Assembly (NCBI GenBank): GCA_963743635.1
Contig: CAVUQO010000003.1
Span: 160,001-224,000 of the forward strand
Origin: Candidatus Babeliales bacterium
Lineage (GTDB): Bacteria; Babelota; Babeliae; Babelales; Vermiphilaceae
Direction: 5' to 3'
Length of the DNA stretch: 64,000 bases
Shown here: one piece after another, positions 1-20,168 of the stretch
Numbering within the stretch: the stretch's first letter is position 1
How the letters are laid out: each line of letters begins with the position of its first letter
Notes under the pieces: generated by a model
The model's database searches: none
What the model was told of the DNA's origin: nothing
The model's input: only the letters and a program-made list of their open reading frames with translations
Translations under genes and position numbers: made by a program

Positions 1-3000
1 ATATCCTGTTGGCGATACTGCTGTGCCCAGAATCATAAAATTGTTATTTACCGCGTTTACAATTTGTCCTGTAGTAGCCCACGTAATAAGCGATGAAGGA
101 GAACTGGTAAAAAAGCCATTGGTTGTATTATCTATTAGTTTTGTACTATTTAAAACTATATTGCCAGACGATGGATTAATATCATACGCAGTGCCTCCGC
201 TGCTGCTGCTGATTGTTGAATTGTTGACCGTTGTTGTTCCACCGGCATTTTGCACCCCATAAACCGTACTGCCGGATCCTGATGATGCAATAATAGGGCA
301 CGCTGTAAGTGTACATGCAGTGCCGGTATTATAGACGCCAATAGCCTGGCCACTACCAGTTGACGTAGCGGTAATAGAAGATGAATTTACTATAGCCGGT
401 GTAGGCGTATTATAGAGGGCATAAACGTAGCCTCCATTTGTACTTGCAACGCTGATCGGAGATCCATTGATAGTCAATACCCCCGACGTATTATAAACGC
501 CGTAGTTAGCAGCGCCCTGTGAGGCACCGGTATTTGCCGATGATACAGTAATAGGCGATTCATCGATGATAAGCGGGGAGCTGGAGGAAAAATTATTGAT
601 GCCATATACCCGAGCGGTAGTTCCTGATACGTTGATGGGCGATGAGTATATGCTGACGGTTCCCGAACTAGAAAAAACGCCATAAACGAAATAGCTGCCG
701 CCACTAGCGCCTGCAGAAACGGTTATCTTTGATCCTATTATGGTAGACGTTGCTCCATTATTGACTCCCCATATACCAGCATTTGAAGAATTTGAAGAGG
801 TAGCAGTAACCATTATAGGGGAATTAATAATGTTAACGGTACCTGATCCAGGAGTTACTCCCTGTATGCCATTGGCAGTAACGGCGGCAGTAATCGTGAC
901 GGGGGAGTTAATGAGAGATAATGTTCCGCCGCCGCTCGGCGTATATGCGCCGAAGGTCCGCCGTACTTGTAGATGAGATAGTTAGGGGTGATGATGTTAA
1001 GGTAGTTGTTCCGGAACCATTACACTGTATGCCAGTTGTAGTACCACTAGCAGTTCCCGTTGAAACAGTCAGAGGTGATTCATTGAGCCTTGTGTTGGCG
1101 GAGCCAGTAGTATATAAAAAGTATGATGTACTGGAACTAGTGGTTGCCTAATGGTAGTAGCGATAATTAAAGGTAAGGCTGTTGCTGCCTTGCGAATAAA
1201 TAGCATAATAAATTCCTGAACTAGTCATGTTTATGGTTATGGATGATGAGTTTATGGTGCAAGTTCCGTTATTATTTACTCCATACAAAGTAAGAGTGCT
1301 GGAAGAAGATGCGCTAATATTTGAGGTGTTTACACCAACCGTTAATCCTGATGTTTCATTATATAATCAATAGCACGATTGTGCGGTGGCGCCTGAGCTC
1401 GTAGCCGCTATCGAGCAGTTCGTGATATTAAAGTTACCAGAGGCGGCATTAAGGAGCACGCCAGCGATAGTGGCGGTGGATGTGCTAGAAGTACATTGCA
1501 CCGCGATGACGCAATCTTCCAATACGGAAATTTCAGCACCAGGTGTTCCTGTGCTGGTAGAAGAAACGCCGGTCGCCGCTGCGGTACTTGAGGTGCTGAC
1601 ATTCAAGTTGACCGATTTGATTCGCGCGGTAGCTGATTGAGTGCCAGAAAGAGCAATACCCGTTAATGCAAAGGCGCTTGCGGTGCTCAAATTTAAAGAA
1701 ACGTTTTCAAGCCGTGAATATGAAGACATGGTTACTAATGTTGTTGCACTGGTAACGCTGAGCATTTCAAGCGTAACTCCCGAGGTGCCGACGTTGGTGC
1801 CAATGGTTCCGCTCGACGTAACAGTTAATCCCGCTCCTTCTGACATTCCAATTAAGCTTACATATGATGGTATCGTTATGCCGGCGGCGAGACTATAAAT
1901 GCCTGGCATTACCCAAATAACAATGGGATTGCTTGCGGAAGCTGGAAAACTTGATGCAGCAGTAATGGCAGCACCGATTGTTAGAAATGGTGCGCCATTT
2001 ATAGCTCCCGTACTATCATTTCCATTCACCGCATCAACACGCGCAACGTTACCAAGAACGGATACGCTCTGATACTCAGTGATCCCGCGCCAGTTGCATA
2101 CACAATAGACTTATCCGGAGTTGTGAGGTATGCAAAAACCGGATTGGCGCCCGTTGAGCCGAGCAAGACTTGTCCATTATTGCCAACGGGAATAGAGGTT
2201 AAATTTCCCGAACTGTTACCGACTTGCACGGCGAAAGGAGTCGTTGCTTGTGATGATACCACGCCCGTTGCGTTGGTGCTCATGACGCCGGTGCCGAGTG
2301 AGTTGAGTATAGTAGTTCCTGTAACATTGAGTCCGCCGGCAGTTGCAATCAATCCATTGCTTGCAGTGATAGTGTTGGATGCATTAATCCTGCCCGTTAC
2401 ATTGAGATTACCAAACATATTGAGATTTCCGGTCATATTGAGATTGCCCGGCACATTCAAATTTCCGGTCATATTGAGATTGCCCGTCATATTGAGACTG
2501 CCCATTGAGCTGATGCCGCCAGCATTTACCGTTAAGCCGCCCGCAGTTGCAATGAGTCCATTGCCTGCAGTAACCGATCCAGAAACTGATGGGCTATTTA
2601 CTAAATTGACGCCAACAGTATTTCCCGATCCGGTGGTGGTGATATTTGATCCACCAGTAATATTAAGAGCACCGGCAGATGGAACTGCAGTTCCTGAGTT
2701 TGTAGGGAATGAAGCAGGAATGGTGCCTGAAGTTTCCAAATCAAGACTGTTTGCGCCGGGTGTGAAAGTAATGGTATTGCCGGTAGAAGTGAGTGAAGCA
2801 AACGCAGGAGCAGCACTCGTTGAGCCGATGAGAACTTGTCCGTTACCGCCAACGGCAATTGAGGTTAAATTTCCTGCTGCATTACCAATTTGCACGGCAT
2901 TGGCAGTCGTTGCTTTTGATGGTATTACGCCCGTTGGACTGGCGCTCATGACGCCCGCGCCGAGTGAGTTCAGTATAGCAGTCCCCGTAACATTGAGTCC

Positions 3001-4250
3001 GCCGGCAGTCGCAATCAATCCATTGCCTGCAGTCACTGATCCAGAAACTGACGGGCTATTTACTAAAGTGACGCCAACAGTATTTCCCGATCCGGTGGTA
3101 GTGATATTTGATGCACCAGTAATATTAAGAACACCGGCAGATGGAACTGCAGTTCCTGAGTTTGTAGGGAATGAAGCAGGAATGGTGCCTGAAGTTTCCA
3201 AATCAAGACTGTTTGCGCCGGGTGTAAAAGTAATGGTGCTTGATGTTAAATTTGCAAACGCAGGAGCAGCGCCTGCTGCGCCGATGAGAATTTGTCCGTT
3301 GCCGCCCACACCAAGAGATGTTAAATTTCCTGCTGCATTACCAATTTGCACGGCATTGGCAGTCGTTGCTTTTGATGGTATTACACCCGTTGGACTGGCG
3401 CTCATGACGCCCGCGCTGAGTGAGTTCAATATAGTAGTTCCCGTAACATGGAGTCCGCCCGCAGTTGCAATCAATCCATTGCCTGCGGTTACTGATCCAG
3501 AAACTGATGGGCTATTTACTAAATTGACGCCAACAGTATTTCCCGATCCGGTGGTAGTTATATTTGATCCACCAGTAATATTAAGAACGCCGGCAGATGG
3601 AATTGCAGTTCCTGAATTCGTAGGAAATGAGTCAGGAATGCTGCCAGTAGTGCTGATCGTGACCATAGAGTCTGAGCCACTGGTAGTGATATTTGATCCG
3701 CCAACGATATTAATATTGGCCGCAGCAGGAAAAGCTGATCCATTATTAGTGTTGCAAAGAAAGATTGTTCTTTTTTCCGCGGCGATCTCATCGATATCAA
3801 ATTCTCGCTCAATAATCACCTGTGGATAATGTGCGTGATCAGTTTATCAAGATACGTTTGCAAGATATTGATGGTCTTATTCTCAGGATCGATTGTTTTG
3901 AGTGCTGATTGTTCAAGGAGATTAATCAATGCTGTAATGGTTACCGAAAGGAGCTCAAGCGAGTGAATGTGCTGCGCTTCCTTCAGAAAAAGCGTGAGAT
4001 CTATACGCTTATCAAGTTCTGGATATTGAGATCTGAGTGATTCAATTGCATTTTTGATGGAATCGGGAATGTAGGCAAAAGTGATCTCAGAATGTTCAAG
4101 CATGAAGATGCGATCTGCATCGGTAAGATATTTTTTTGGTGTGGCAATGTTTGCTGCAAAAGTGCTGAGTGCCGGCTCGCTCATGCCATCACAAGAGAAA
4201 ATGGCGGTTAAATAGAGAAGAGTCCATAATAATGTATTGATTTTCTTCAT
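1..4250 (-). pseudogene. Interrupted paralog of the 1539-aa fibre/adhesin gene; runs off the left edge
   Basis: ORFs 3816-4250, 2026-3819, 1367-2029 and further fragments are colinear with 4277-8896. Breaks: frameshift ~3830, GG vs GGG at ~2059, in-frame TGA at 1367-1369, more indels near 1160 and 955. Positions 1-300 match 4543-4860. May be intact in vivo (sequence errors). Confidence 0.75.
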
Positions 4251-4276
4251 GCAGTTCCCTTTTTTATAAAACTCTT

Positions 4277-7200
4277 TTAATACATTTCTACGGTTGCAGT
4301 GATGACGCCCACTCCGGTTCCACCAGTCATAAACATATTGATCCGATCGCCTCCAGCGCAGCTGACAACGTTGGTGTTATTAAGGGCGTAACCGGTAGTT
4401 CCCAGCGTAGTAGTGAGTGATGTGGCACTGCCATTTTTATATACCGTAAAGGTAGGCCCAGTAGCAGAAATAGCGGAAGTAGCTACCAAGTTTTTAAGAA
4501 CGAGCGCATGAGGAGCAGTGAGGCCTACGCCAGTGGCGTTAGTATATCCAGTTGGCGATACTGATGTGCCCGGGATCAAGAAACAACCAGCAGATGAGCC
4601 AGACGCAATTTGTCCTGTAGTGGCCCATGAAAGCAGTGATGAAGGAGAGCTGGTAAAAAAGCCAGTCGATGGCGTTGTATTATCTACCAGTTTTGTACTA
4701 TTTAAAACTATATTGCCAGTTGATGATGATGGATTAATATCATACGGAGTAGTGCCTCCGCTGCCGCTGATTGTTGAATTGTTGATGGTTGTTGTTGTTC
4801 CACCGGCAGCATTTTGCACACCATAAACCGTACTGCCTGTTCCTGATGATGCAATAATAGGAGATGCGGTAAGTGTGCATGCAGTACCGGTATTATAGAC
4901 GCCAATAGCTTGACCAGTTCCTGTTGAAGTCGCTGTAATAGAAGATGTACGTATTGTGGTCGGCGTGCTTGTATTATAAAAACCATAAACCCAACCTACA
5001 CCTGAAGTTGAGACGCTCATGGGTGATGCATCAATAGTAAATGTTCCGGCTGTATTAGAAACGCCATAGTTGGCGCCTGGTTGAGTAGTAGTAGCGTTTG
5101 TAGATGATGCCGTAATCGGCGATTCATAGACGCTGCACGCTGTACCAGCATTTGATATGCCATATACTTGGGCGGTAGTTGCTCCTGTTACACTCATGGG
5201 CGATGTATAGATATTCATAGTGCCGGCTGTATTTTGCGCTCCATAGAGAGTTCCCGTGCCTGATGAAACGGTCATATTAGATCCCGCTAGAGTAAACGTT
5301 GTGCCGCTATTAAATACACCCCATGCCAGCCCGCCGCCTGTTGTAGTAGCAGTAATGGGTGAATTGTTGATGGTGCACGTTGTTGCCGTGTTATAGACGC
5401 CATAGACGGTAGCAGTACTTGTTGAGGTAGCGCTTATGGGCGATGAGTATATGTTGACGGTTCCCGCAGTAGTGGCATTTACTGCATATGTGGTGCTGGT
5501 TGCTAATGAAGATGATGCGGTAATGGGTGAGTTGTTGATCGTTATGCTGTTGCTAGCACTTCCTGCTGGTTGGGCTATTCCGGTTACTACAACAGAACTT
5601 CCACTACTATTAGTACAGGTGACTGTAATAGGAGATGAGTTTATTGCCATTGAAGCATTGGAGATGGTATTATCAACTCCCGTTATAGTCGTGGCAGTCC
5701 CTGAGCTTGATACCGTCACCGGTGATGCATTCAGTGTGTTAACGCCGCTTTCTATGCCATATATATTTGAGGCGCCGGTTGAAGACACGTTTATTTGTGA
5801 ATTATTTACGGTTATTGTATAGCCGGTGCTAGTGCCAGGTGCTAAAATGCCCCATGCTGTTCCAGAACTCGGAGTTGATGTTGAGAGACTAATATTAGAA
5901 TTATTTATTATGGTGCTGGAGGTGGTTGCGCTGTATATAACGGCTATGCCGGCAGATGGGGGAATGGTTTGTGTCCCAGAGAGCGCAACGTTTATAGAGC
6001 AGTTGGTGATGTTAAAATTGCCAGCGCCATTACCTCCAGTTACTCCGAGATTATTATATATGCCATAGGTGATGCGCCCCAGATTAGAGGCTTGAATCGC
6101 TATGGTACAATCTTCCAATACTGATATTTCGGGCCCGGGCGTTCCTTTCGAGTTATTCAGAACACCGTAGACGTTGCCTATATTAGTTCCATTCCCGGTA
6201 ACGGTCATATTAAGATTAACCGATTTAATACGGGCGGTAGCGCTCACGGTGCCCGGCGTGCTCGTAGTACCGAGCTGTATGCCGACATCATTAGTGGGTG
6301 TTGTGTTTGTGAATGATAGATCATTGATAATTAAATTCACATTTTCAAGGCGGGAATAATCTGTCATAGTGACCAGTGTAATCCCGTTTGGATTGTTTGG
6401 TGATTGAATGGTAACTCCCGAAGTGCCGACATTGGTGCCGATGGTTCCGCCAGAAGTAACGGTTGATCCGGCGCCTTCTGAAAGCCCAATAAGACTGACG
6501 TATGATGGTATTGTTATGCCGGCGGCGAGAATATAAACGCCTGGCATAACCCAAATAACTACGGGAGTGGAACTTGTTGCTACTGCGCTTGCAGCAGTTA
6601 TAGCAGCGCCGATTGTTAGAAATGGTGCGCCATTTATAGCTCCCGTACTATCATTTCCATTCACCGCATCAACACGCGCAACGTTACCAAGAACGGGATA
6701 CGCTCTGACACTTAATGATCCAGCGCCAGTTGCATACACGATAGAATTATCCGGGGATGTGAGGTATGCAAAAACCGGATTGGCGCCTGTTGAGCCGAGC
6801 AAGACTTGTCCATTATTGCCAACAGCAAGAGAGCTTAAAGTTCCCGAACTGTTACCGACTTGCACGGCGAAAGGAGTTGTTGTTTGTGATGATACCACGC
6901 CCGTTGCGTTGGTGCTCATGACGCCAGTGCCGAGTGAGTTCAGTATAGTAGTGCCCGTAACATTGAGTCCGCCGGCAGTTGCAATCAATCCATTGCTTGC
7001 AGTGATGGTGTTGGATGCATTGATGGTGCCCGTGACATTGAGATTACCAAACATATTCAAATTGCCGGTCATATTGAGATTGCCGGTTAAGTTCAGATTG
7101 CCGGTCATGTTGAGATTACCGGTCATATTGAGATTGCCAATTGAGCTGATGCCGCCGGCATTTACCGTTAATCCGCCCGCAGTTGCAATCAATCCATCGC

Positions 7201-8896
7201 CTGCAGTAACCGATCCAGAAACTGATGGGCTATTTACTAAATTGACGCCAACGGTGTTTCCCGATCCGGTGGTAGTTATATTGGAGCCACCGGTAATATT
7301 AAGAACACCGGCAGATGGAACTGCAGTTCCTGAACTCGTAGGAAATGAGTCAGGAATAGAGCCCGCAGTTTCTAAATCAAGACTGTTTGCACCGGGCGTG
7401 AAAGCAATGGTGTTGCCGGTAGAAGTGAGTGTAGCAAACGCAGGATTAGCGCCTGTTGCGCCGATGAGAACTTGCCCGTTACCGCCAACGGCAATTGAGG
7501 TTAAATTTCCTGCTGCATTACCAATTTGCACGGCATTGGCAGTCGTTGCTTTTGATGATACCACGCCCGTTGCACTGGTACTCATGATGCCGGTACCGAG
7601 TGAATTCAGTATAGTAGTCCCCGTAACATTGAGCCCGCCGGCAGTTGCAATCAATCCATTGCCTGCAGTCACTGATCCAGAAACTGATGGGCTATTTACT
7701 AAATTAACGCCAACAGTATTTCCCGATCCGGTGGTGGTGATATTTGATCCACCAGTAATATTAAGAACACCGGCAGATGGAACTGCAGTTCCTGAGTTTG
7801 TAGGGAATGAAGCAGGAATGGTGCCTGAAGTTTCCAAATCAAGACTGTTTGCGCCGGGTGTGAAAGTAATGGTATTGCCGGTAGAAGTGAGTGAAGCAAA
7901 TGCGGGTGCAGCACCCGTTGCGCCGATGAGAACTTGTCCATTATTACCAACACCAAGAGATGTTAAATTTCCTGCCGCATTACCAATTTGCACGGCATTG
8001 GCAGTCGTTGCTTTTGATGATACCACCCCCGTTGCATTGGTACTCATGATGCCGGTGCCGAGTGAGTTCAGTATAGTAGTACCCGTAACGTTGAGTCCGC
8101 TCGCGGTTGCAATCAATCCATTGCCTGCAGTCACTGATCCAGAAACTGATGGGCTATTTACTAAATTGACGCCAACGGTATTTCCCGATCCGGTGGTAGT
8201 TATATTTGATCCACCAGTAATATTAAGAACGCCGGCAGATGGAATTGCAGTTCCTGAATTCGTAGGAAATGAGTCAGGAATGGTGCCTGCAGTGTTGATC
8301 GTGACCGTAGAGTCTGACCCACTGGTAGTGATATTTGATCCGCCGACGATATTAATATTGGCCGCAGCAGGAAAAGCTGATCCATTATTAGTGTTGTAGA
8401 GAAAGATTGTTCTTTTTTCCGCGGCGATCTCATCGATATCAAATTCTCGCTCAATAATCACCTGCGAATCATGTGCGATCAGTTTATCAAGATACGTTTG
8501 CAAGATATCGATTGTTTTATTTTCCGGATCAATTGTTTTGAGTTCTGATTCTGCAAGAAGTTCAATCAATGCCGCTATCGTTGCGCTGAGAACATTAAAT
8601 GAGTGGACGTGCCGCGTAGTCTGCAGAAAGAGCGTGAGATCTATGCGAGTGTCAAGTTCAGGATATTGAGATCTGAGTGATTCAATGGCCTTTTTGATGG
8701 TATCGGGAATGTAGGCAAAGTGGACATCGGCGTTTTCACGCATAAAAATGCGATCTGCATCGGAAATATATTTTTTTGATGTGGAAATAGTTGCTGCAAA
8801 AGTGCTGAGTGTAGACTCGCTATTGCTATCGAACGAGCAAAAGGTTCCTAAAAATATGAATATCAATAACAATAATAATGTACATTTTTTCATCAA
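4277..8896 (-). CDS. Exported fibre/adhesin: signal peptide, pro-domain, ~154-aa tail-fibre-like repeats, GNLNMT hexapeptides, beta-helix-like head, C-terminal beta-rich domain
   Basis: 1539-aa ORF with AAGGAA RBS; FPTxSGTAxP repeats; VDAVNGNDSTG...PFLTIGAA motif typical of the start of pectin-lyase-like beta-helices; Gly/Ser/Thr rich. Confidence 0.85.
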   Translation of the reverse strand: MMKKCTLLLLLIFIFLGTFCSFDSNSESTLSTFAATISTSKKYISDADRIFMRENADVHFAYIPDTIKKAIESLRSQYPELDTRIDLTLFLQTTRHVHSFNVLSATIAALIELLAESELKTIDPENKTIDILQTYLDKLIAHDSQVIIEREFDIDEIAAEKRTIFLYNTNNGSAFPAAANINIVGGSNITTSGSDSTVTINTAGTIPDSFPTNSGTAIPSAGVLNITGGSNITTTGSGNTVGVNLVNSPSVSGSVTAGNGLIATASGLNVTGTTILNSLGTGIMSTNATGVVSSKATTANAVQIGNAAGNLTSLGVGNNGQVLIGATGAAPAFASLTSTGNTITFTPGANSLDLETSGTIPASFPTNSGTAVPSAGVLNITGGSNITTTGSGNTVGVNLVNSPSVSGSVTAGNGLIATAGGLNVTGTTILNSLGTGIMSTSATGVVSSKATTANAVQIGNAAGNLTSIAVGGNGQVLIGATGANPAFATLTSTGNTIAFTPGANSLDLETAGSIPDSFPTSSGTAVPSAGVLNITGGSNITTTGSGNTVGVNLVNSPSVSGSVTAGDGLIATAGGLTVNAGGISSIGNLNMTGNLNMTGNLNLTGNLNMTGNLNMFGNLNVTGTINASNTITASNGLIATAGGLNVTGTTILNSLGTGVMSTNATGVVSSQTTTPFAVQVGNSSGTLSSLAVGNNGQVLLGSTGANPVFAYLTSPDNSIVYATGAGSLSVRAYPVLGNVARVDAVNGNDSTGAINGAPFLTIGAAITAASAVATSSTPVVIWVMPGVYILAAGITIPSYVSLIGLSEGAGSTVTSGGTIGTNVGTSGVTIQSPNNPNGITLVTMTDYSRLENVNLIINDLSFTNTTPTNDVGIQLGTTSTPGTVSATARIKSVNLNMTVTGNGTNIGNVYGVLNNSKGTPGPEISVLEDCTIAIQASNLGRITYGIYNNLGVTGGNGAGNFNITNCSINVALSGTQTIPPSAGIAVIYSATTSSTIINNSNISLSTSTPSSGTAWGILAPGTSTGYTITVNNSQINVSSTGASNIYGIESGVNTLNASPVTVSSSGTATTITGVDNTISNASMAINSSPITVTCTNSSGSSVVVTGIAQPAGSASNSITINNSPITASSSLATSTTYAVNATTAGTVNIYSSPISATSTSTATVYGVYNTATTCTINNSPITATTTGGGLAWGVFNSGTTFTLAGSNMTVSSGTGTLYGAQNTAGTMNIYTSPMSVTGATTAQVYGISNAGTACSVYESPITASSTNATTTQPGANYGVSNTAGTFTIDASPMSVSTSGVGWVYGFYNTSTPTTIRTSSITATSTGTGQAIGVYNTGTACTLTASPIIASSGTGSTVYGVQNAAGGTTTTINNSTISGSGGTTPYDINPSSSTGNIVLNSTKLVDNTTPSTGFFTSSPSSLLSWATTGQIASGSSAGCFLIPGTSVSPTGYTNATGVGLTAPHALVLKNLVATSAISATGPTFTVYKNGSATSLTTTLGTTGYALNNTNVVSCAGGDRINMFMTGGTGVGVITATVEMY
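6720..8290 (-). repeat. Intragenic ~462-bp tandem repeats (3 units, the third interrupted by 18-bp GNLNMT repeats); same layout at ~2090-3640
   Basis: Near-identical DNA blocks recur at ~8266, ~7804, ~7342 and ~3624, ~3168, ~2706. Confidence 0.9.
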
Positions 8897-11270: not shown

Positions 11271-11359
11271 AGACGACAATCTCTTTGGGCGAATATTGCT
11301 TTCTGGATCAATTGAATAAGAAACGATATATCAGAATGTTTTTAATAATAAGGAAATTC

Positions 11360-12340
11360 ATGGTTATAAAAAATACGCTCCTCAGAATGATGACTGCCCT
11401 CTCAATGCTTACACCAATGATGTACGCCAATCCTCTTGATCCGCTCAACTCATTGGTTGCATCACCCGCTCTGAATGATACCATTGTGGTGCAAGGCCCG
11501 TTGGTCATTGGTATCGTAAATGATATTTATGGCAAGGCGGTAAAAAACAAAAGAGTTGTTGTATACCTTAATAAGCGCAAGGTTGGCGTAGTTTACACCA
11601 ACAAATATGGCGTGTGGTCTTATATACTTAATAGCGGACAATCTTTACAAGACGGCACGTATATTGTGCAAGCATATGTTCAGCTTGCTGCGGGCAATAA
11701 TGTGTGGACGCAAGCAACCTTATTTAACGTGCAGGCATCACGCACTCCAACTCCAGTGAGATTGGGTGTTGTCAATGCTGCTAATTCTGCAATTAATTTC
11801 CCATACGAAGGCGCGTATATCAATACCTCAACACCAACTATTGTGGGCAGCTTAGTTGATTCTAACTACAATGCAGTTGTTGGCGAAACGGTGAATATTA
11901 GTATCAATAGCGTGAATATTGCGACTGTTACTTCTGATAGCAATGGCGTATTCTCCTATCAAGTGAGCGCTACCTTAGATGATGGTAATTACACCGTTGG
12001 TGCACATTGCGTGCAATCTGACGTCAATTTAACCACCAATGATTTTGTTATCCTCACCGTGCCGCCTGCTGCTCCCGTGGTTACATTCCCGAGCGAATAT
12101 TATGTGGTGGATAATAGTACGGTGATTGTAACTGGTACTACTGAATCATATGCAACGATCACCACGTTTATGGATGGTGATACATTCGGCGTAGTATGTT
12201 ATGCGGATCAATATGGCAACTGGTCTAATGAATATGATGGCCTTGCAAATGGTTCACATTCAGTGACGGCACAAGCATCTGATCTGGCAGGCAATACCGG
12301 CCCGGTATCAGGAGCAACGGATTTTAGCGTGAGTGCATAA
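11360..12340 (+). CDS. Exported Ig-like domain protein (3 domains)
   Basis: Start reassigned to ATG 11360 after AAGGA; full-length paralog of 10033-10998. Confidence 0.85.
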   Translation: MVIKNTLLRMMTALSMLTPMMYANPLDPLNSLVASPALNDTIVVQGPLVIGIVNDIYGKAVKNKRVVVYLNKRKVGVVYTNKYGVWSYILNSGQSLQDGTYIVQAYVQLAAGNNVWTQATLFNVQASRTPTPVRLGVVNAANSAINFPYEGAYINTSTPTIVGSLVDSNYNAVVGETVNISINSVNIATVTSDSNGVFSYQVSATLDDGNYTVGAHCVQSDVNLTTNDFVILTVPPAAPVVTFPSEYYVVDNSTVIVTGTTESYATITTFMDGDTFGVVCYADQYGNWSNEYDGLANGSHSVTAQASDLAGNTGPVSGATDFSVSA

Positions 12341-12353: not shown

Positions 12354-12394
12354 AAAAAGGCGGGAGCGAAGTGTAATACTTCGCTTCCGCTTAT
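12354..12394. terminator. Hairpin between convergent genes, probably bidirectional terminator
   Basis: AAGGCGGGAGCGAAGT-gtaat-ACTTCGCTTCCGCTT. Confidence 0.75.
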
Positions 12395-12412: not shown

Positions 12413-13297
12413 TTATTGTAACGCTGTTGCAGTGAAATGTACGGTCTGAGTGCCACTACTAAATGCAATGCTGACCGCAGTAGGAGTTACTGATGCAATA
12501 GTCACCGTAGATGATCCTGATGATCGTTGCCCTGTAGCAATCACCGATGGAGATACTGAGAAGCTCGGAATAAAGTTGATAATCATTGTTGAACCAGAAA
12601 CTATATACGTATATCCCGATCCGCTGCCTGATCCTGAAGTTGGTATATATCCATCAATGACGCGAATTTGAGATTTTCCGGTAGGCAGTATAAGCGGTAA
12701 GTTAGCGTTGATATCAATGATAGCACTTGAAGGATAACCTGTTTCTTGTAGTACAGCTTCTAAAGTATGGATGCCATTCGCATTAATAGGGCATAGGATT
12801 TGCCAATTGCCGCTTGCATCACTTGTGGCAGTTCCTACGACTGCATCATCAAGTAATAATTCTACGGTGGTTGAAGGCGCGGTAGATACACCGGTGACCA
12901 TGATGAGGTTGGTCATTATATCATCACCATCTGCAGGATCCGTTATCGCTATGGTATCTGTATTTTGCACGGTGAAAGAGACCGTAGTTGTCGCAAGAGT
13001 GCGATAATCAGTATCAATGAGATTTGCGGTCAGCGTGTAATCTCCATTCATGAGTGCTGCTATGGTAAAACTCCAATTGCCATAACTATCAGTGGTAACA
13101 CTTCCTATATAGGTATCATTGATAGTTAATTGAACTTGAGCATCATCTACGGATGATACGCCGTTTATGGCAAGAGGGTCGCCACTTACCTTAGCCGTAT
13201 TTGCGGGATTATTAATGGCAATGACGTTGATAGCGCTGAGCGTGACTGTGCTAAAAAATGTGCATGCCATGGTTAAAAGGAGTATCGTTTTTTTCAT
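12413..13297 (-). CDS. Exported protein with two Ig-like domains and a small C-terminal beta domain (phage-tail/lectin-like)
   Basis: MKKTILLL signal peptide; GNW Ig motifs; INFIPSFSVSPSVIAT pattern. Confidence 0.75.
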   Translation of the reverse strand: MKKTILLLTMACTFFSTVTLSAINVIAINNPANTAKVSGDPLAINGVSSVDDAQVQLTINDTYIGSVTTDSYGNWSFTIAALMNGDYTLTANLIDTDYRTLATTTVSFTVQNTDTIAITDPADGDDIMTNLIMVTGVSTAPSTTVELLLDDAVVGTATSDASGNWQILCPINANGIHTLEAVLQETGYPSSAIIDINANLPLILPTGKSQIRVIDGYIPTSGSGSGSGYTYIVSGSTMIINFIPSFSVSPSVIATGQRSSGSSTVTIASVTPTAVSIAFSSGTQTVHFTATALQ

Positions 13298-13333
13298 AGT
13301 TAAATTCCTCATTCTATTTTCGTTAACGGTTAT

Positions 13334-15514
13334 TTAATATACTTCTGCAGTTACTGCAATGTCAGATGCCCCGACTGTGCCGGTAACTATTTGTAATGTC
13401 AGAGTATTGCCGGCAACACAAGAGACGCTTACATTAGAAGCAGTCGAATTAGCACTGTTATTGCCACTTGCTAGGGAGACGGTCAATCCTGTAGCTATGC
13501 CATTTTTCAGCAAGGTAAAGGTAGTTCCGGCAGCGCCTGCGGCTGTTGCTGACTGTGCATACATATTTTTAATGATACATGGCTGTGTCGCAACATAAGG
13601 GATAGAAGTTACGAGCGTTGCTTGTGTTGCTGCAGTACCAGGAGTCATGTAGGCAGTTCCAACTGCTGGTGTGGTATTAGTTGCCCATGTGATGGTCGAT
13701 GCAGGCCCAGTAGAGGTAAATCCGAATGAGTTTGCATTGGAATTTACGAGATTCGAATTTGATACTATTAGAGTACCAGCCGATTGGGCAATATCTGCCG
13801 TGGGGTTTCCGCTTACTGTTGAAGAACTTATGATGCATGATGCGCCTGCAAGATTGGTTTGCACACCGATGGCACTACCGCCGCCAGAATTTGTTACCGT
13901 AATACTGCTGGTGCGTATATTGAAGGTATTCACGGCAGTATCAACAATAACGCCTCGGGCAACTTGTGTGCCTGAAGTGCTCACGGTTACCGTTGAATCT
14001 TGTAGCGCAAATAAATTGGTTCCAGCGTTACCAGTACCAATGGAATGAATGCCATACGTATTGCCTCCGGCATTTCCCGTATTGGTAACGTTGAGGTTAA
14101 CCATGCTCACAGTAGAAGTTTGAGATGTAGTGTCAAGAAATACGATCCCTCGCAGTTGCACGTTTGATCCCGCATTGGATGTAAGATTTAGGGTGACATT
14201 TGAGAGGCGTGAACTTTCGCCCATAGTTACTAAATCTGTATTGGCGGTTACATTGGTTTGTTGGATTCGAACACCGCTTGAGTTATAACCACCCGAAGTG
14301 ATTCCAGCTACGCTCACCGCATTTTTGATAACAACGGCTTCATTGTACGTTCCCGGGAATATCCATATCGTGGTTCCCGAAACTGCAACAGCCATAGCCG
14401 CAGCAATAGTGGCAAAAGGAGCGCCATTAAGAGCGCCGGTAGCATCGTTGCCATATACTGCATCAACGCGCGCTATGTTGCCAAAAACCGGTACTGATTG
14501 GAGGTTAAGTGTTCCAGCTCCTGGCGTAAAAATAATAGAATTATTCGTTGATGTCAGCGCATTAAATACAGGTGGATTGCCGGTGGAGCCTATCAGTACT
14601 TGACCATTGGTACCAGGAGCTGAAGCTAGAATGCCTGTGCTGGTAGAAGTGAGTGCGCCTGCGGTGAACGGAAATTTGATAGCGCCTGCACTAACCGTAA
14701 GCCCATTGCCTGCAGTTATGGATCCATCTACGGCGAGTGAACCAGGAATTACTACATTGTTATCTAAATTTATAGTGACGGTTTGCCCTGAGCCACTGGT
14801 ATTAATATTTGATCCGCCAACAATATCAAGCACTCCTGCAACAGGAATTGCAGTTCCCGCATCGGTCACAAAGCTTTGGTTGCTGCCAGCACTTCCTGAT
14901 TGGCCATTGATTGTGCCCGCTACGGTTAAATTGCCACAAATCGTTGCATTGCACGATACGTTGAGAGAGCCAGTGGTTAAATTATCAATAACCCATAGAT
15001 TACAGAATTTTTTACAACGTCGGCCACGAACTTGGGTTGTTTGCTCTTCTTCTAATTCTTTTAATTCTCCCAAGGTAATATGCGCATTGCCATTTTGAAG
15101 AATGCCTAGATAGTGCTCAATAATGTGTAATGAGTTATCTTCTGGATGATTTTTCTTAACATCGGCAGCAGTAAGAAGGTTAAGTAACTGCAGGCTAATG
15201 TTTTCTACTGCTTTTGTTGGTGCAACGTGCACATTCTCATCGAGAAAGAGTGATAGATCTATGAGTTCAGCGAGGTCAGTATAGTTGATTTTTAGTAATT
15301 TAACGGTTGTTTTTAGAGCCGCGGGGATGTATACAAAATCAGTTTCGGGATTTTGTGTAAGAAGTTTAGTATCTTGCTCGGATAGAAAAGTTTCAACGGC
15401 AGGCAACTCCTCGATGCCGATTTCATTGATATGCTCCTCCGATTGATTTGCATATGATGGTAGGTATATGATAATTCCCATACATAATAACATCAATAAT
15501 AAAGTTTTTTTCAT
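13334..15514 (-). CDS. Exported fibre/adhesin paralog: pro-domain, RGRRCKKFCNL motif, one fibre repeat, beta-helix-like head
   Basis: AGGAG RBS; FVYIP..LK...IDLSLF pro-domain; FVTDAGTAIP repeat; VDAVYGNDATG; ends AEVY like VEMY of the 4277 gene. Confidence 0.85.
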   Translation of the reverse strand: MKKTLLLMLLCMGIIIYLPSYANQSEEHINEIGIEELPAVETFLSEQDTKLLTQNPETDFVYIPAALKTTVKLLKINYTDLAELIDLSLFLDENVHVAPTKAVENISLQLLNLLTAADVKKNHPEDNSLHIIEHYLGILQNGNAHITLGELKELEEEQTTQVRGRRCKKFCNLWVIDNLTTGSLNVSCNATICGNLTVAGTINGQSGSAGSNQSFVTDAGTAIPVAGVLDIVGGSNINTSGSGQTVTINLDNNVVIPGSLAVDGSITAGNGLTVSAGAIKFPFTAGALTSTSTGILASAPGTNGQVLIGSTGNPPVFNALTSTNNSIIFTPGAGTLNLQSVPVFGNIARVDAVYGNDATGALNGAPFATIAAAMAVAVSGTTIWIFPGTYNEAVVIKNAVSVAGITSGGYNSSGVRIQQTNVTANTDLVTMGESSRLSNVTLNLTSNAGSNVQLRGIVFLDTTSQTSTVSMVNLNVTNTGNAGGNTYGIHSIGTGNAGTNLFALQDSTVTVSTSGTQVARGVIVDTAVNTFNIRTSSITVTNSGGGSAIGVQTNLAGASCIISSSTVSGNPTADIAQSAGTLIVSNSNLVNSNANSFGFTSTGPASTITWATNTTPAVGTAYMTPGTAATQATLVTSIPYVATQPCIIKNMYAQSATAAGAAGTTFTLLKNGIATGLTVSLASGNNSANSTASNVSVSCVAGNTLTLQIVTGTVGASDIAVTAEVY

Positions 15515-15759
15515 ACACCACTCCTTTTTTTTTAATATTTTTTTTCAATATAACAATTACCTGATCTCATTCCTAGAAAAATCATCGATGACCTGATTGT
15601 ATTAATAAAGACGATGTTATTGCAATAGGTGACACAGCAAAAGGGGCGTTTGTGCCCGTGCTAATTCTTTCTCTTTTTTAAAATCACTCAATGCATTATG
15701 CAGCAGTAGCGAGTGCATGCATAAGATGTTAAACAAGAACATATTTTTTTTGATGTCAC

Positions 15760-17349
15760 TTATAATGCCCCATAGAGTTCAAACGTTCCGCCAGTGATAT
15801 TTCCCGAGCTGAAGAATAATTGAAAGGCGTTGCATCCGGCGGTGGCGACATAGCCTCCAACGAATACTGATGACACCCCAGGATTAGTTATACGTAAATA
15901 GGTAGATCTCCCATAAAAGGCTGGATAAATAGTTTGAGAGGCGCCTATATTGCTCAATAGCATTTCGCCGCTACAGGCATAATGAGCCACGTTAAGAACC
16001 GAATAGGCAAGCAATAAAGAACTTCCATTACTGGTACCGATACTTGCAACGTCACTATAAGAGTCTGAAGTTGCAAAAAGAGAAACCCCATAATATCCCG
16101 TAGACACCCACGAGGTTCCGTTATTCGTTGAGCATTGTAATTGAATGCTTGCCCCAGATGTGGGAGGAAGCATGTTGTACCATTTGATTTGAAAGCTCGT
16201 ATAACCTGTCGGTAGATTGATAAAGGTAACTGCTGAAACGTTACTCACCGTTTGCGTTGATAGTAATCGATATGGATTTGAATTATCGGCATATGCTGTG
16301 GTGGCCAATTTTGTAGAATCATCATTAGCGCTTTGAGTGCTAGCCGTTGCAGTTCCGGTAATTGCTATGCCGTTTGTGCTGCCGGTAAGTACTATATTGC
16401 CAGTTCCTGCTTGTATGGTTGTGAGGCTTGAAGTATTCGTGGAGCCGAGCGTGGCTGTTTTTGCGCCGTTGCCAGTAGTAATGGAAATGGTAGAGGAGGA
16501 AGCATCAGTAGAAACGTTTAAAGCATTAGTGCCTGAGTTGAGCGTGATAGTTCCGCCAGAGATAGAAGAATTTCCGGTAGCATTAATGCCGCCAGTAGTT
16601 GCAATGAGTCCGGTGCCAGCTGTTACTGATCCAGAAACTGAGGGACTATTATTCAGATTTACTGTTACGGTTGACCCTGACCCACTGGTATTTACGTTGG
16701 ACCCCCCATGTATAGTTAATGCACCACTCGATGGTGTTGCAGTTCCAGAATCGGTTGGAAATGAGGTTGAGACAGAGCCACTCAGTCCGATAGTGATGGT
16801 TGAATCTGCGCCGGTGGTAGTGATATTTGATCCGCCAACGATATTAATATTCGCGGCAGTAGGAAATGCCGATCCGCTATTGGTGTTGAATAAAAATACC
16901 GTTCTTTTGCCGTCATGAATATCATCCTCATCAATGCATACCTGTATCGCTCCTGATTCAACGGCACGCGCATACTGCTCTAAATCGGCGAACATTTTAG
17001 GGGCGGGGCATTTTGCATTGGCAAGAGCGGTAAGAAGTTGTTCTATAGATGATAGTACATATTCTTGCGGGACAATATGAGTATCTTGATCAATGAATAA
17101 TGATAGATCGATAAAAGTATTAATTTCTGGGTGCAGCGCATTTAACATTCTGATGGTTGCTTTGATATCTTCAGAAAGGTACGTAAAATCTACCGTGGGA
17201 TTATTGATTACTCGGTCATAATCCTGTGCGGATATCACATAGCATGGCGCGTGAGTATCTATCATCGTTGGAGATACATCCTGATGAGCAGCTAAGGGAG
17301 AAGCTCCAAGGCAGGCATTCAATATTATGAAAATGAGCAATAATATCAT
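15760..17349 (-). CDS. Exported fibre paralog with phage tail-fibre-like C-terminal head
   Basis: Start reassigned to ATG 17349 (AGGAAG RBS); TQSANDDSTKLATTAY; ends GNITGGTFELYGAL. Confidence 0.85.
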   Translation of the reverse strand: MILLLIFIILNACLGASPLAAHQDVSPTMIDTHAPCYVISAQDYDRVINNPTVDFTYLSEDIKATIRMLNALHPEINTFIDLSLFIDQDTHIVPQEYVLSSIEQLLTALANAKCPAPKMFADLEQYARAVESGAIQVCIDEDDIHDGKRTVFLFNTNSGSAFPTAANINIVGGSNITTTGADSTITIGLSGSVSTSFPTDSGTATPSSGALTIHGGSNVNTSGSGSTVTVNLNNSPSVSGSVTAGTGLIATTGGINATGNSSISGGTITLNSGTNALNVSTDASSSTISITTGNGAKTATLGSTNTSSLTTIQAGTGNIVLTGSTNGIAITGTATASTQSANDDSTKLATTAYADNSNPYRLLSTQTVSNVSAVTFINLPTGYTSFQIKWYNMLPPTSGASIQLQCSTNNGTSWVSTGYYGVSLFATSDSYSDVASIGTSNGSSLLLAYSVLNVAHYACSGEMLLSNIGASQTIYPAFYGRSTYLRITNPGVSSVFVGGYVATAGCNAFQLFFSSGNITGGTFELYGAL

Positions 17350-17365
17350 TTGTTTCTTCCTATAA

Positions 17366-18595
17366 TTATAAAACCGCATAGAGCTCAAAGGTTCCGCTGG
17401 TGATATTTCCCGAACTAAAAAGTAACTGGAAGGCATTGCATCCAGTAGCGGCTACATAACCGCCAGTGAGTGCTACGCCAACTAATGGTGTGTTTGAGTC
17501 TAGATAGGTAACTATGCCATAAAAAGCTGGATAAATAGTTTGAGAGGTTCCTATATTGCTCAGTAGCAGTTCACCACAACAGGTATAACCTGCTACGGTG
17601 TTAATGATAGCTTGTGTAAGAGTTACGGAAGATGTATTAGAAGAGGCTATAGTGTTACCACTACCTGCTGAAGTATTGTAAAAAAAGGATCCATAATATC
17701 CGGTTGTTATCAACCCGCCACTATTAGATAATTGTATCTCAAGGGATGAGCCTGATGTGGCAGGAACTACGTTGTACCACCTGATTTTAAATTTCGAATA
17801 TCCTGAAGGTAGACTGTTAAAAGTAACTGCTGTGACGTTACTCACCGTTTGCGTTGATAGTAATCGATATGGATTGGAATTATCCGCATATGCGGTGGTA
17901 GCCAATTTTGTAGAATCATCATTAGCACTTTGGGTGGTAGCCGTTGCAGTTCCGTTGAATGCTATGCCGTTTGTGCTGCCGGTACATACGATGCTTGCAG
18001 TTCCTGCTTGTATGGTTGTGGAGCTTGAAGTATTGGTGGAACCGAGCGTAGTGGTTTTTGTAGCATTGCCGGTTGCGATATTAACGGTAGTAGTAGCACT
18101 ATCGGTAGAAACGTTTAAAGCATTTGAGCCGGGGTTAAGCGTGATAGTTCCGCCAGAGATAGAAGAATTTCCGGTAGCATTAATGCCGCCAGTAGTTGCA
18201 ATGAGTCCGGTGCCAGCCGTTACTGATCCAGAAACTGAGGGACTATTATTCAGATTTACCGTTACGGTTGACCCTGACCCGCTGGTATTTATGTTGGATC
18301 CCCCATGTATCGTTAATGCATTATTAGAAGGCGTTGCAGTTCCAGAATCAGTTGGGAATGAGGTTGAGATAAGGCCAGTAGCTGCAATAGTGATGGTTGA
18401 GTCTGCGCCCGTGGTAGTGACATTTGATCCGCCAGCGATATTAATATTCGCGGCAGCAGGAAATGCCGATCCGCTATTGGTATTGTAGAGTAAGATTGTT
18501 CTTTTGCATTCACTCAGATTATCCTGATCATTTGCAGCTAACGGAGCAGCGTTAAAACAGGCATTCAATATCATGAAAATGAGTAAGGATATCAT
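17366..18595 (-). CDS. Exported fibre paralog lacking the pro-domain
   Basis: Start reassigned to ATG 18595; signal peptide joins directly to DQDNLSECKR; same stalk/head as neighbours. Confidence 0.85.
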   Translation of the reverse strand: MISLLIFMILNACFNAAPLAANDQDNLSECKRTILLYNTNSGSAFPAAANINIAGGSNVTTTGADSTITIAATGLISTSFPTDSGTATPSNNALTIHGGSNINTSGSGSTVTVNLNNSPSVSGSVTAGTGLIATTGGINATGNSSISGGTITLNPGSNALNVSTDSATTTVNIATGNATKTTTLGSTNTSSSTTIQAGTASIVCTGSTNGIAFNGTATATTQSANDDSTKLATTAYADNSNPYRLLSTQTVSNVTAVTFNSLPSGYSKFKIRWYNVVPATSGSSLEIQLSNSGGLITTGYYGSFFYNTSAGSGNTIASSNTSSVTLTQAIINTVAGYTCCGELLLSNIGTSQTIYPAFYGIVTYLDSNTPLVGVALTGGYVAATGCNAFQLLFSSGNITSGTFELYAVL

Positions 18596-18611
18596 TTGTT
18601 TCTTCCTATAA

Positions 18612-20168
18612 TTACAATACCGCATAAAGCTCAAAGGTTCCGCTGGCAATATTTCCCGAACTAAAGAACAAATGGAAGGCATTGCATCCCGCAGTGTTTA
18701 CCGATCCGCCGGACATTGAATTCAATGTTTTAGTAGTAGTCGTATTATTATATAAAGAGGTAGATCTTCCGTAGCAATTAGGATAAATAGTTTGAGAAGC
18801 TCCTATATTGGTAAATAGTATTTCGCCGCTACTGGAATAATTAGTTAAGACAATAACGGCTTGTGATATTGCTAAGGAACTTGCGTTATTTGAGACGGTA
18901 GTGCTAAAAGTTCCTGCTGAATTACTAAAAAAGTCAATCCCATAATATCCTGATCCTATCCAAGAAGAACCATTGTTATTTGACCATTGTAATTGAATGT
19001 TTGACCCTGATGTGGCAGGAACCACATTGTACCATCTAACCAGAAATTTCGTGTATGCCGTCGGTAGATTGATAAAGGTAACTGCTGAAACGTTACTCAC
19101 CGTTTGCGTTGACAGTAAACGATATGGATTTGAGTTATCGATGTATGCGGTAGTAGCCAATTTCGTAGAATCATCATTAGCGCTTTGCGTGGTAGCTGTT
19201 GCAGTTCCGGTAATTGCTATGCCGTTTGTGCTGCCGGTAAGTACTATATTGCCAGTTCCTGCTTGTATGCTTGTGATGCTTGAAGTATTGGTGGAGCCGA
19301 ACGTAGTTGTTTTTGCAGCATTGCCAGTTGCTATGCTAACCGTGGTATTAGCACTATCGGTAGAAACGTTTAAAGCATTAGTGCCGGAATTGAGTGTGAT
19401 AGTTCCCCCAGAGATAGAAGAATTTCCGGTAGCATTAATGCCGCCAGTAGTAGCAATGAGCCCCGTTCCTGCCGTGAAGGATCCAGAGACGGATGGGCTA
19501 TTATTTAGATTTACCGTTACGATTGCTCCGGTACCGCTGGTATTCATGTTGGATCCGCCATGAATGGTCAATGCATCATTCGATGGAGTTGCAGTTCCAG
19601 AATCAGTTGAAAATGAGGTTGAGACAGAGCCGCTCATTCCGATAGTGATGGTTGATCCTGCGCCGGTGGCAGTGATATTTGATCCGCCAACGATATTAAT
19701 ATTCGCGGCAGCAGAAAATGCCGATCCATTATTGGTGTTATAGAGAAAGATTGTTCTTTTGCCGTCACTCAGATTGTCTTGATCGATATGGACTTGTACC
19801 GTTTGCGCTTGAAGTTCCTGCGCATATTGTTTTAAATCAGTAAGCAGTTTAGTTGCAGGATATTCTGCATTGGCAAGCGTTGCCAGCAGTTGTTCTAAAA
19901 ATGTTAGCAAGGTATCTCGCGGGGTAATATGCGTATCTTGATCAATCAACCATGTTAGATCGATAAGAGAATCGATTTCTGGGTATTGGGCTTTAAACAT
20001 TCTGAGTGCTGTTTTGATATCTTCCGGAATGTACGCAAAATCTACTGCAGGATTATTAATAACAAGATCATAATCCTGCCCAGAAATCATGGCATGAAGG
20101 TTTTGCTGATGCATCGAAAGTAAGAAAATAAATGCGATTAACGCTATTTTTTTCACGGCAATCTTCAT
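18612..20168 (-). CDS. Exported fibre paralog with phage tail-fibre-like head
   Basis: Signal peptide, FAYIPEDIK pro-domain, DGKR-TIFLYNTN, ends GNIASGTFELYAVL. Confidence 0.85.
   Translation of the reverse strand: MKIAVKKIALIAFIFLLSMHQQNLHAMISGQDYDLVINNPAVDFAYIPEDIKTALRMFKAQYPEIDSLIDLTWLIDQDTHITPRDTLLTFLEQLLATLANAEYPATKLLTDLKQYAQELQAQTVQVHIDQDNLSDGKRTIFLYNTNNGSAFSAAANINIVGGSNITATGAGSTITIGMSGSVSTSFSTDSGTATPSNDALTIHGGSNMNTSGTGAIVTVNLNNSPSVSGSFTAGTGLIATTGGINATGNSSISGGTITLNSGTNALNVSTDSANTTVSIATGNAAKTTTFGSTNTSSITSIQAGTGNIVLTGSTNGIAITGTATATTQSANDDSTKLATTAYIDNSNPYRLLSTQTVSNVSAVTFINLPTAYTKFLVRWYNVVPATSGSNIQLQWSNNNGSSWIGSGYYGIDFFSNSAGTFSTTVSNNASSLAISQAVIVLTNYSSSGEILFTNIGASQTIYPNCYGRSTSLYNNTTTTKTLNSMSGGSVNTAGCNAFHLFFSSGNIASGTFELYAVL

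Follow-up and report, generated by a model that had tools for sequence, protein, structure and literature searches.

A 64-kb stretch of DNA from a Candidatus Babeliales bacterium (contig CAVUQO010000003.1, positions 160,001 to 224,000; the whole stretch is referred to here as the window, and positions are counted from its first letter) carries an array of stalk and head paralogs with signal-peptide-like starts, which was confirmed here from the open reading frame (ORF) list, the translations, and an alignment of five of the proteins. The array occupies window positions 1 to 20168 on the minus strand and comprises five intact paralogs (A, C, D, E, and F) and one decayed paralog (B). With moderate confidence, we propose that this chromosomal Dependentiae array encodes Sec-exported homotrimeric fibers or spikes built from phage tail fiber modules. 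Each protein would consist of a cleavable leader, a lineage-restricted globular N-terminal domain of about 115 amino acids (aa) (the N-domain), a trimerizing neck and repetitive shaft, and a distal head. The head of D, E, and F would be a lectin-like beta-sandwich of a type common at phage fiber tips, and that of A, B, and C would be a beta-helix like those of tailspikes, followed at the C terminus by a small tip domain.

In the proposed mechanism, the chains would cross the inner membrane by Sec, trimerize through neck and shaft, and reach the cell surface, possibly by a type II-like route as for Legionella Lcl. The fibers would be held there by three N-domains docking on a common envelope partner, as the N terminus of a phage fiber docks on the virion, and the distal heads would attach to glycans on the surface of the protist and favor its uptake of the bacterium, with the paralogs providing alternative specificities. 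The polarity would be that of a phage fiber (proximal adaptor N-terminal, receptor-binding tip C-terminal), with the leader and N-domain replacing the virion adaptor. We infer the surface location, the docking of the N-domain, and host binding, the first and last from the lifestyle of the Dependentiae, whose cultured members are described in three papers as obligate parasites of amoebae and flagellates (PMC6561590, PMC4378268, PMC8812299).

Six paralogs with leader-like starts, stalks, and heads

All six paralogs share a common build, with a signal-peptide-like start, a stalk of FPTxSGTAxP units, and one of two types of head. An earlier reading made from the letters alone (the sequence-only reading) had described six paralogs with signal peptide, stalk, and swappable head. 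This description holds for five intact genes; the sixth, B, is broken by frameshifts and stops. The paralogs and their parts are as follows, with the evidence in parentheses (HMM, hidden Markov model).

1..4250, minus strand: paralog B, a decayed copy of A that exits the left edge (ORFs; N-domain HMM, E 6e-41)
3816-4250, minus strand: piece of B with leader and N-domain, the latter at 3825-4136 (ORFs, HMM)
2026-3819, minus strand: piece of B with a stalk of three FPT units and a GNLN run at 2392-2484 (ORFs)
1367-2029, minus strand: piece of B with the start of the beta-helix (DUF1565, 22.2 bits, cutoff 20.3; Pect-lyase_RHGA_epim, 26.7 bits, cutoff 27)
1-1366, minus strand: piece of B with the remaining beta-helix, containing stops (exits the left edge)
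4277..8896, minus strand: paralog A, 1539 aa, likely start ATG at 8893 (ORFs, alignment, HMM)
8408-8776, minus strand: N-domain of A (HMM)
13334..15514, minus strand: paralog C, 726 aa, leader ending ..PSYA before NQ (ORFs, HMM)
15035-15394, minus strand: N-domain of C, residues 41-160 (HMM)
14894-15019, minus strand: Cys-rich neck of C, residues 166-207, RCKKFCNLWV..GNLTVAGTING (sequence, three-copy model)
15760..17349, minus strand: paralog D, 529 aa, ATG at 17349 preceded by AGGAAG, leader ending ..PLAA before HQ (ORFs, HMM)
16900-17244, minus strand: N-domain of D, followed by the stalk (HMM)
15763-16344, minus strand: predicted beta-sandwich head of D, beginning with TQSANDDSTKLATTAY (HMM, model, BFVD, phrog_14820)
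17366..18595, minus strand: paralog E, 409 aa, with leader, stalk, and head (17369-17941) and without N-domain (ORFs, HMM)
18612..20168, minus strand: paralog F, 518 aa, leader ending ..NLHA before M, and stalk (ORFs, HMM)
19752-20093, minus strand: N-domain of F (HMM)
18615-19196, minus strand: head of F (HMM)

The stalk motif F[PSVN]T[DNS][SA]GTA.P occurred 10 times in the 64 kb, always inside the six paralogs (three times each in A and B and once each in C, D, E, and F). The FPTxSGTAxP repeats of the sequence-only reading are therefore present as a motif in all six, but genuine repetition, with a period of 154 aa, is found in A and B only; C to F have one canonical unit and one degenerate unit. 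In A, the 154-aa unit occurs three times in the stalk (FPT motifs at residues 210, 364, and 518), and units 1 and 2 are 92% identical. A run of GNLNxT hexapeptides is present in both A and B; in A it lies at 7028-7138 and has the form GNLN[MLV][TF]. A beta-helix region then starts in A at GNVARVD (residue 737, about position 6688) and is followed by a C-terminal tip ending in ..VEMY. Paralog A had no Pfam, NCBIfam, or PDB sequence match. In C, the neck is followed by a single FVTDAGTAIP unit, a beta-helix from GNIARVD, and a tip at residues 615-726 ending in ..AEVY. An HMM of the D-type head matched three times in a six-frame scan of the window (D, E, and F).

Paralog B is 89% identical to A at the DNA level across 2433 nucleotides (nt); its reading frame shifts at least three times and is also cut by two in-frame stops, a TGA and a TAG. 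B is a pseudogene or a badly assembled copy, and its two in-frame stops point to genuine decay there.

Signal peptides were assessed by eye and from the hydrophobicity maximum over 12 residues, not with a dedicated predictor. A to F all begin with one or more basic residues followed by a hydrophobic stretch of 12 to 15 residues; the 12-residue maximum was 2.0 to 3.2 across the six copies (2.0 in B), and plausible cleavage sites seen by eye follow SYA (before N), LAA (before H), and LHA (before M). An N-terminal maximum of at least 2.0 was also found in 37 of the 40 further proteins that represent the N-domain family (see below). The exceptions were P0118 and P0126, which are leader-like by eye, and P0112, which is probably truncated. 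Anchoring as lipoproteins was considered and dropped, since the position of the cysteine varies, giving no consistent lipobox, and relatives have sites resembling those of signal peptidase I.

The stop of F and the start of E are separated by 16 nt, as are the stop of E and the start of D. The likely start of D and of E is the later ATG, given the AGGAAG in front and the gaps of only 16 nt that are left. From this arrangement, F, E, and D look like a single transcription unit with F as its first gene. The best promoter-like site (10 of 12) lies upstream of F at 20252-20223 on the minus strand, and a site upstream of C at 15625-15596 provides weak evidence; promoter-like sites in the region were not above shuffles (41 versus 32.6, standard deviation 6.1). 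Sequences resembling ribosome-binding sites precede the expected starts of the uninterrupted copies, including AAAGGAG upstream of C.

The N-terminal domain and the predicted trimeric neck

The N-domain was found in five of the six paralogs (A, B, C, D, and F). A six-frame scan of all 64 kb with the N-domain HMM gave exactly five matches, one in each of these paralogs (E 1e-41 to 1e-46), and no further N-domain elsewhere in the window. In E it has been lost cleanly and in frame, such that the leader is fused directly to the DQDNLS..KRT linker. The sequence-only reading had placed a helical domain of about 110 aa in five paralogs; the count stands, but the domain is not purely helical. An AlphaFold2 model of C residues 24-215, computed from a 24-row alignment, had a predicted local distance difference test score (pLDDT) of >90 over about construct residues 20-130 and showed a compact domain of eight helices and three short strands, with the next 50 residues disordered in the monomer.

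The N-domain had no family match in Pfam, NCBIfam, or PHROGs, and its profile matched nothing among PDB sequences below E 0.34. A word-indexed search with the N-domain of C returned only the self-match. Foldseek comparison of the model with the PDB gave no match at E<=1e-3 among 272 at E<=10, with a best TM-score (TMq) of 0.24. These results agree with the earlier suggestion that the domain belongs to no characterized family: as modeled, it is a fold without a solved counterpart and has no relative of known structure or name.

To define the family, an HMM built from the five window copies only was scored against 1.84 billion cluster representatives, of which 44 matched at E<=1e-3 and 15 at E<=1e-10. 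The match begins at residue 13-65 in all 44 and is thus always N-terminal. Fusion partners, a list of which the sequence-only reading had proposed to compile, were sought with Pfam in 36 of the 40 new representatives (omitted were one fragment from the window itself and three others no longer than 112 aa), and they include collagen, Peptidase_S74 (S74), DUF1565, and K1-lyase_C in addition to the stalks and heads of the window. The collagen triple helix (PF01391) was above the cutoff in P0117, P0120, P0123, P0130, and P0141 and below it in P0142; S74 was found in P0119 (37.7 bits) and P0145 (37.5) and, in a separate scan, in P0019 (23.5), with a cutoff of 22; the DUF1565 beta-helix was found in P0112, P0137, and P0144; and K1-lyase_C, which we take to be the end of phage capsule lyases, was found in two relatives. 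Of the 44 family members, 12 had the C-terminal tip of A and C according to a locally built HMM, which detected this tip in no other protein compared. Two orthologs of the same architecture, P0004 and P0005 (51% identity), lie on other contigs. After the N-domain come an acidic linker and a basic site (KRT or RGRRC), and many members, including C, have a Cys-rich neck directly after it (C..CNLxV...L..GSL.V.G.A.I.G.LTV.GTING).

The oligomeric state was examined with a three-copy model of C residues 35-215. The interface score ipSAE was 0.66 (runs of 0.70, 0.66, and 0.66), compared with 0.00 for the best of three controls; the runs agreed in at least 80% of contacts, with a partner pLDDT of at least 70. 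In a calibration, 0.66 was attained by 20 of 30 solved one-chain pairs and 1 of 23 solved single chains, counts that are only approximate for a three-copy model because they were obtained with two copies and with alignments made by the tool itself. The confident interface consists of C residues 166-207, the Cys-rich neck, and only one N-domain residue contacts another chain. The model suggests that the neck trimerizes while the three N-domain lobes stay free at its proximal end. Collagen helices and S74 chaperones occur in proteins that are obligate trimers, and the N-domain family is therefore best read as trimeric. The model lends support to a homotrimeric fiber but falls short of proof, and a trimer in this organism would be an extrapolation. 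The expectation that the stalks would model as fibers was examined on the neck of C, whose three-copy model is compatible with it.

As to the role of the N-domain, the sequence-only reading had offered intramolecular chaperone, anchor, and export tag. The chaperone role is the least likely of the three, since three relatives combine the N-domain with S74, the E gene is intact although it encodes no N-domain, and the N-domains lie outside the trimer interface of the model. Anchor and export tag are retained as roles that the domain may have, and the best reading is a cell-proximal docking or export module.

Phage affinity of the stalks and heads

The heads in the window appear to be of two types, a beta-sandwich (D, E, and F) and a beta-helix with a C-terminal tip (A, B, and C). 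The heads of D, E, and F are homologous (64 to 65% identity). A model of the D head (residues 331-529) was an all-beta sandwich with a pLDDT of 81.4 and a predicted TM-score of 0.78. Among the viral models of BFVD, Foldseek found 211 matches to it at E<=1e-3 (best E 3.7e-17, TMq 0.77); of the best 50 of these, the named matches are nearly all phage, several being labeled tail fiber, lambda Stf repeat, or collagen. An origin from a eukaryotic virus was dropped on this ground, a single Solumvirus protein being among the best 50. The PDB gave a weak lectin- or galectin-like resemblance (TMq<=0.36), and phmmer searches of D and A against PDB sequences found nothing meaningful. Nothing usable came from the ESM Atlas.

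At the sequence level, D residues 341-527, which include the ANDDSTKLATTAY motif, matched positions 6-204 of the 206 positions of phrog_14820, a family of unknown function, with E 4.2e-6; E and F had no PHROGs match at E<=1e-3. The sequence-only reading had called a DxSTKxATTAY-type motif typical of phage fibers, and the evidence for this here is the phrog_14820 and BFVD matches that span it. A tblastn search with the 51-aa motif segment of D found no match among GenBank phages, and the protein P0063 matches phages through its S74 part only. C had a far subthreshold NCBIfam match (21 bits against 380), and A, C, D, E, and F had no Pfam family at E<=0.01, including S74, collagen, autotransporter barrel, and YadA anchor.

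A search with D yielded 105 sequence relatives, many of them on contigs of 30 to 40 kb. The N-terminal hydrophobicity maximum reached 2.0 in only 7 of the 105 (three window proteins, P0003, P0004, P0005, and P0019), the other 98 scoring 1.9 or less. A leader-like start is present in seven (window D, E, F, and C and P0004, P0005, and P0019), and the N-domain is present in seven (three window proteins, P0004, P0005, P0019, and the N-terminally truncated P0042). Neither leader nor N-domain is present in 97 of the 105, which have starts of the virion type, such as MPYKYNPFTGELD.. or M..RLNGLNPLAYLG..RAPT.ND. These leaderless relatives contain up to six FPTDSGTATP units and end in S74, C1q, other conserved ends, or a D-type head; P0015, P0021, P0049, and P0050 combine FPTDSGTATP units with a D-type head. 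The likeness to phage fibers claimed in the sequence-only reading therefore held up in the phrog_14820 match, the BFVD models, and the leaderless relatives of D, and phage fiber ancestry of stalk and head is supported at the level of sequence and model. A start of the form M.Y[KR].NPFTG.LD was seen to be common to the leaderless relatives P0006, P0008, P0009, P0014, P0021, and others; it is probably the particle attachment segment of a group of phages with genomes of about 30 to 40 kb.

Genomic setting, alternatives, and meaning

The SecA protein encoded in the window was 68 to 74% identical to that of eight loci (L001-L007 and L053), of which seven are titled Babeliales or Dependentiae and the eighth (L003, 74%) is titled "uncultured bacterium"; identity was 69% with Vermiphilus pyriformis and 71% with strain Noda2021. 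The other 72 of the 80 SecA loci kept were at most 60% identical. This comparison is one of a single marker by identity only, with no tree. The genes on the right of the array include ftsA, ftsZ, secA, hisS, and those for a CDP-diglyceride synthase, a BamD-like lipoprotein, and a GspE/PilB-type ATPase. SecA identity and the flanking ftsA, ftsZ, secA, and hisS genes indicate that the window is a chromosome segment of a diderm member of the Dependentiae. The contig to which it belongs measures 818,594 bp. A monoderm host from the candidate phyla radiation was dropped, as the SecA identity and the BamD-like gene are against it.

Pfam was run on the six fibre genes, four genes for Ig-like proteins, and the 34 ORFs of at least 150 aa to their right, and PHROGs was run on 12 ORFs of window positions 1-25403. 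No capsid, terminase, portal, integrase, sheath, baseplate, or autotransporter barrel family was found among the ORFs scanned, in keeping with what the sequence-only reading had noted for most of these. The sole "tail" matches were weak ones of tape measure PHROGs to a low-complexity repeat protein at 22467-25403 and are probably an effect of low complexity. The window contained no tRNA and no Rfam family. Other features of the window are listed below.

9195-9836 (plus), 10033-10998 (plus), 11285-12340 (plus), and 12413-13312 (minus): Ig-like leader proteins between A and C (Pfam Big_13, 34.6 to 58.4 bits, cutoff 27, plus other Ig families)
12358-12392: 16-bp G+C-rich hairpin between the convergent Ig-like genes 11285-12340 (plus) and 12413-13312 (minus), probably a two-way terminator
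20531-20863, 20959-21678, and 21698-22222 (plus): three short ORFs beside F that by eye resemble parts of one paralog of a leader protein (599 aa) encoded at 51596-53395 (minus)
22467-25403 (plus): 978-aa leader protein with an N-terminal thioredoxin domain, then long repeats containing CCCSDMCTATSNAALATK
25567-30994: genes of glycosyltransferase-like (RXYLT1_C, Exostosin GT47) and methyltransferase (FkbM, Methyltransf_24) proteins
35888-36826 and 36715-37218 (plus): ftsZ, split into overlapping ORFs in different frames (TIGR00065 matches the first, E 1e-95)
38584-40835 (plus): adjacent paralogous leader proteins (377 and 338 aa) with Cys/His-rich C-terminal ends and no family match
47221-51470 (minus): two leader proteins with no family match
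59139-59819 and 59780-60859 (plus): GspE/PilB-type ATPase gene, split into an MshEN ORF and a T2SSE ORF in different frames
62471-64000 (minus): protein rich in C2H2 zinc fingers of eukaryotic type (Pfam zf-C2H2, 75.5 bits), exiting the right edge

From their sequences, the four Ig-like proteins may be further surface proteins. The products of 20531-22222 and 51596-53395 both end in ..KIG..F, like outer membrane beta-barrels, and have no Pfam or NCBIfam match. The G+C content of 25567-30994 is 0.37 to 0.39, against 0.41 to 0.48 around it; this region may be a horizontally acquired glycosylation island and could modify surface proteins. The FtsZ_C halves flank the frameshift in ftsZ near 36690, which is either an assembly indel or a genuine lesion, the lineage being known for a reduced division apparatus. 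The two proteins of 47221-51470 begin almost identically (..AQAPLIRQDPEMLVK..ATPENIATIQ.YIEAVEPRGRNYQQDLNKLR) and then differ, one having coiled-coil repeats rich in E, R, and Q together with long poly-Ser runs and the other Pro-rich repeats, and AT skew in this region is extreme (down to -0.37). A C2H2 zinc finger protein is unusual for bacteria and fits a host-manipulating parasite. The GspE/PilB-type ATPase could be part of the outer membrane route of the fibers.

Several observations weigh against the proposal of exported trimeric fibers. Sec export in a diderm cell ends by itself in the periplasm, and no outer membrane route or N-domain partner was identified. The three-copy model spans the N-domain and neck of C and not its stalk, and the intact E indicates that the N-domain is dispensable for some family members. 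With regard to ancestry, tblastn of D against 50,697 GenBank phage records gave nothing at E<=1e-5, and the intact A and C had no Pfam beta-helix match, only the B fragment and three relatives having one. With regard to distribution, the other 41 N-domain representatives carry no taxonomic label, and two peptide patterns derived from D, F, P0004, and P0005 found no relative in 185,579 species genomes, so that the family is either absent from the sequenced representatives, isolates included, or too diverged in them. Finally, the left flank, into which B exits, lies outside the window, and the frameshifted genes in the window (ftsZ, the PilB/GspE-like ATPase gene, and the outer membrane protein gene) make assembly indels possible and the state of B uncertain.

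The alternative that survives best, one that we judge unlikely, is that the proteins are released into the medium or the host vacuole, A and C as tailspike-like depolymerases and D, E, and F as soluble lectins, with the N-domain as a secretion recognition module or an inhibitory pro-piece. The DUF1565 or pectate lyase-like matches of the B fragment and three relatives, the K1-lyase_C ends of two others, the GspE/PilB-type ATPase gene within the window, and the fact that E does without the N-domain would all fit exoproteins, as would the additional presence of Lcl in culture supernatants (PMC11162425). Set against this, the intact A and C match no catalytic family, and long repetitive shafts and collagen stalks are spacers typical of cell- or particle-bound fibers, not of soluble enzymes. 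A common N-terminal domain is not known among type II substrates, and a conserved terminal module on diverse shafts and heads fits a shared docking site at least equally well.

It is still less probable that the N-domain acts as an intramolecular chaperone or pro-domain that is cut off once the fiber has folded. The domain is separate and well folded, a basic site follows its acidic linker, and one otherwise intact paralog lacks it, all of which could be expected of a pro-domain. Known fiber chaperone domains are C-terminal, however (compare Pfam PF13884), and P0019, P0119, and P0145 keep such a C-terminal S74 domain beside the N-domain. The N-domains also scarcely contact each other or the neck in the three-copy model, and in E the stalk and head genes persist without the domain.

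We consider it very improbable that the genes encode fibers of a prophage, a tailocin, or an extracellular contractile injection system (eCIS) whose structural genes lie beyond the left edge. The phage-like stalk and head, together with the unseen flank into which B exits, leave room for such a particle, but particle fibers assemble in the cytoplasm without leaders, and here leader-like starts are present on every copy and on 37 of 40 family representatives. Moreover, no phage structural or integrase family was found among the ORFs scanned, and the array is interleaved with Ig-like leader proteins and then followed by housekeeping genes. To a functionless, decaying repeat family, or one that is partly an assembly artifact, we give hardly any credence: B is broken, the outer membrane protein gene beside F is in three pieces, and ftsZ and the PilB-like gene are frameshifted, but there are five uninterrupted copies of 409 to 1539 aa with ribosome-binding-site-like sequences, the orthologs P0004 and P0005 share the architecture, and the N-domain is conserved across 44 representatives.

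The proposed exported fibers were compared with known systems. Lcl of Legionella pneumophila starts with a signal sequence, after which come an N-terminal helix of 30 residues that is proposed to anchor the protein extracellularly in the membrane, a stalk of collagen, and a trimeric head with affinity for host glycans; its export is type II dependent (PMC11162425). Lcl resembles the window proteins, as these are proposed here, in being the product of an amoeba-dwelling bacterium with a leader, an N-terminal holding module, a long trimeric stalk, and a C-terminal trimeric head, and collagen stalks also occur in five or six members of the N-domain family. It differs in having an amphipathic helix of 30 residues in place of a globular domain of 115 aa, and in its head, which is DUF1566. 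The sequences are unrelated, and the shafts in the window appear to be beta-structured and of phage type rather than collagen. Lcl would thus be the best functional parallel, by a likeness in working and not by family membership.

Phage fibers and tailspikes with S74 (endosialidase type) or with phrog_14820 tips share with the window proteins the shaft unit FPTDSGTATP...GGxxIxTSGSGSTVTV and the fold of the D, E, and F head (BFVD TM-score 0.77), and other N-domain members carry S74, K1-lyase_C, and collagen. Unlike the window proteins, which have a leader and N-domain at that place, these fibers are leaderless and have a virion attachment start such as MPYKYNPFTGELD.. (P0006, P0008, P0009). The six window proteins, for their part, have no S74, and phage structural genes were absent from the window ORFs scanned. 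BclA of the Bacillus exosporium and streptococcal Scl are cell-bound trimeric fibers with an N-terminal fixing part and an outward C-terminal globular head; they differ in their monoderm hosts, in anchoring by the exosporium basal layer or LPXTG, and in having collagen shafts only. Neither sequence nor fold related them to the window proteins. Among the surface adhesins of diderms, trimeric autotransporter adhesins are likewise repetitive, and the beta-helical chlamydial Pmp proteins form multiparalog arrays in an obligate intracellular lineage. Both have a C-terminal beta-barrel anchor and an N-terminal head, whereas the window proteins match no barrel family and are of opposite polarity. The window proteins therefore fall outside the S74 fibers, the collagen-like proteins, and the autotransporters and fit only an uncharacterized phage fiber tip fold.

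Cell-bound trimeric adhesins (Lcl, BclA, Scl) and phage-derived fibers on tailocins or eCIS are kinds already known. What is new here is a Sec-exported family that reuses phage fiber modules, along with its shared N-terminal domain. No prior description of such fibers in Dependentiae was found in the literature searched, outside of which lay most subscription journals and supplements. A comparative genomics paper on TM6 proposes only type IV pili for attachment; "attach" and "adhes" occur there once each, for type IV pili, and "collagen," "fiber," "fibre," and "phage" do not occur (PMC4776705). The main text of the Chromulinavorax paper contains no "fiber," "fibre," "collagen," "adhes*," or "attach*," and that of the Babela paper contains no "collagen," "fiber," "fibr*," "adhes*," or "attach*."

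A broader idea, which we put forward tentatively, is that the infectious cell of Dependentiae is virion-like: a single N-terminal plug domain would dock any phage-derived trimeric fiber in one envelope socket or export port after Sec export, and receptor modules would be swapped to change protist hosts. If true, the fibers could be beta-helical, collagen, tailspike, or lectin-tipped, and the system would be a cellular counterpart of the exchangeable fiber adaptors of phages.

How Dependentiae recognize and enter protists is a gap to which the array brings concrete candidate attachment structures and a searchable, family-defining domain. The proposed fibers would be a clear case of phage receptor-binding hardware refitted for Sec export by a cellular parasite, and they add a confidently modeled domain without a solved fold relative.

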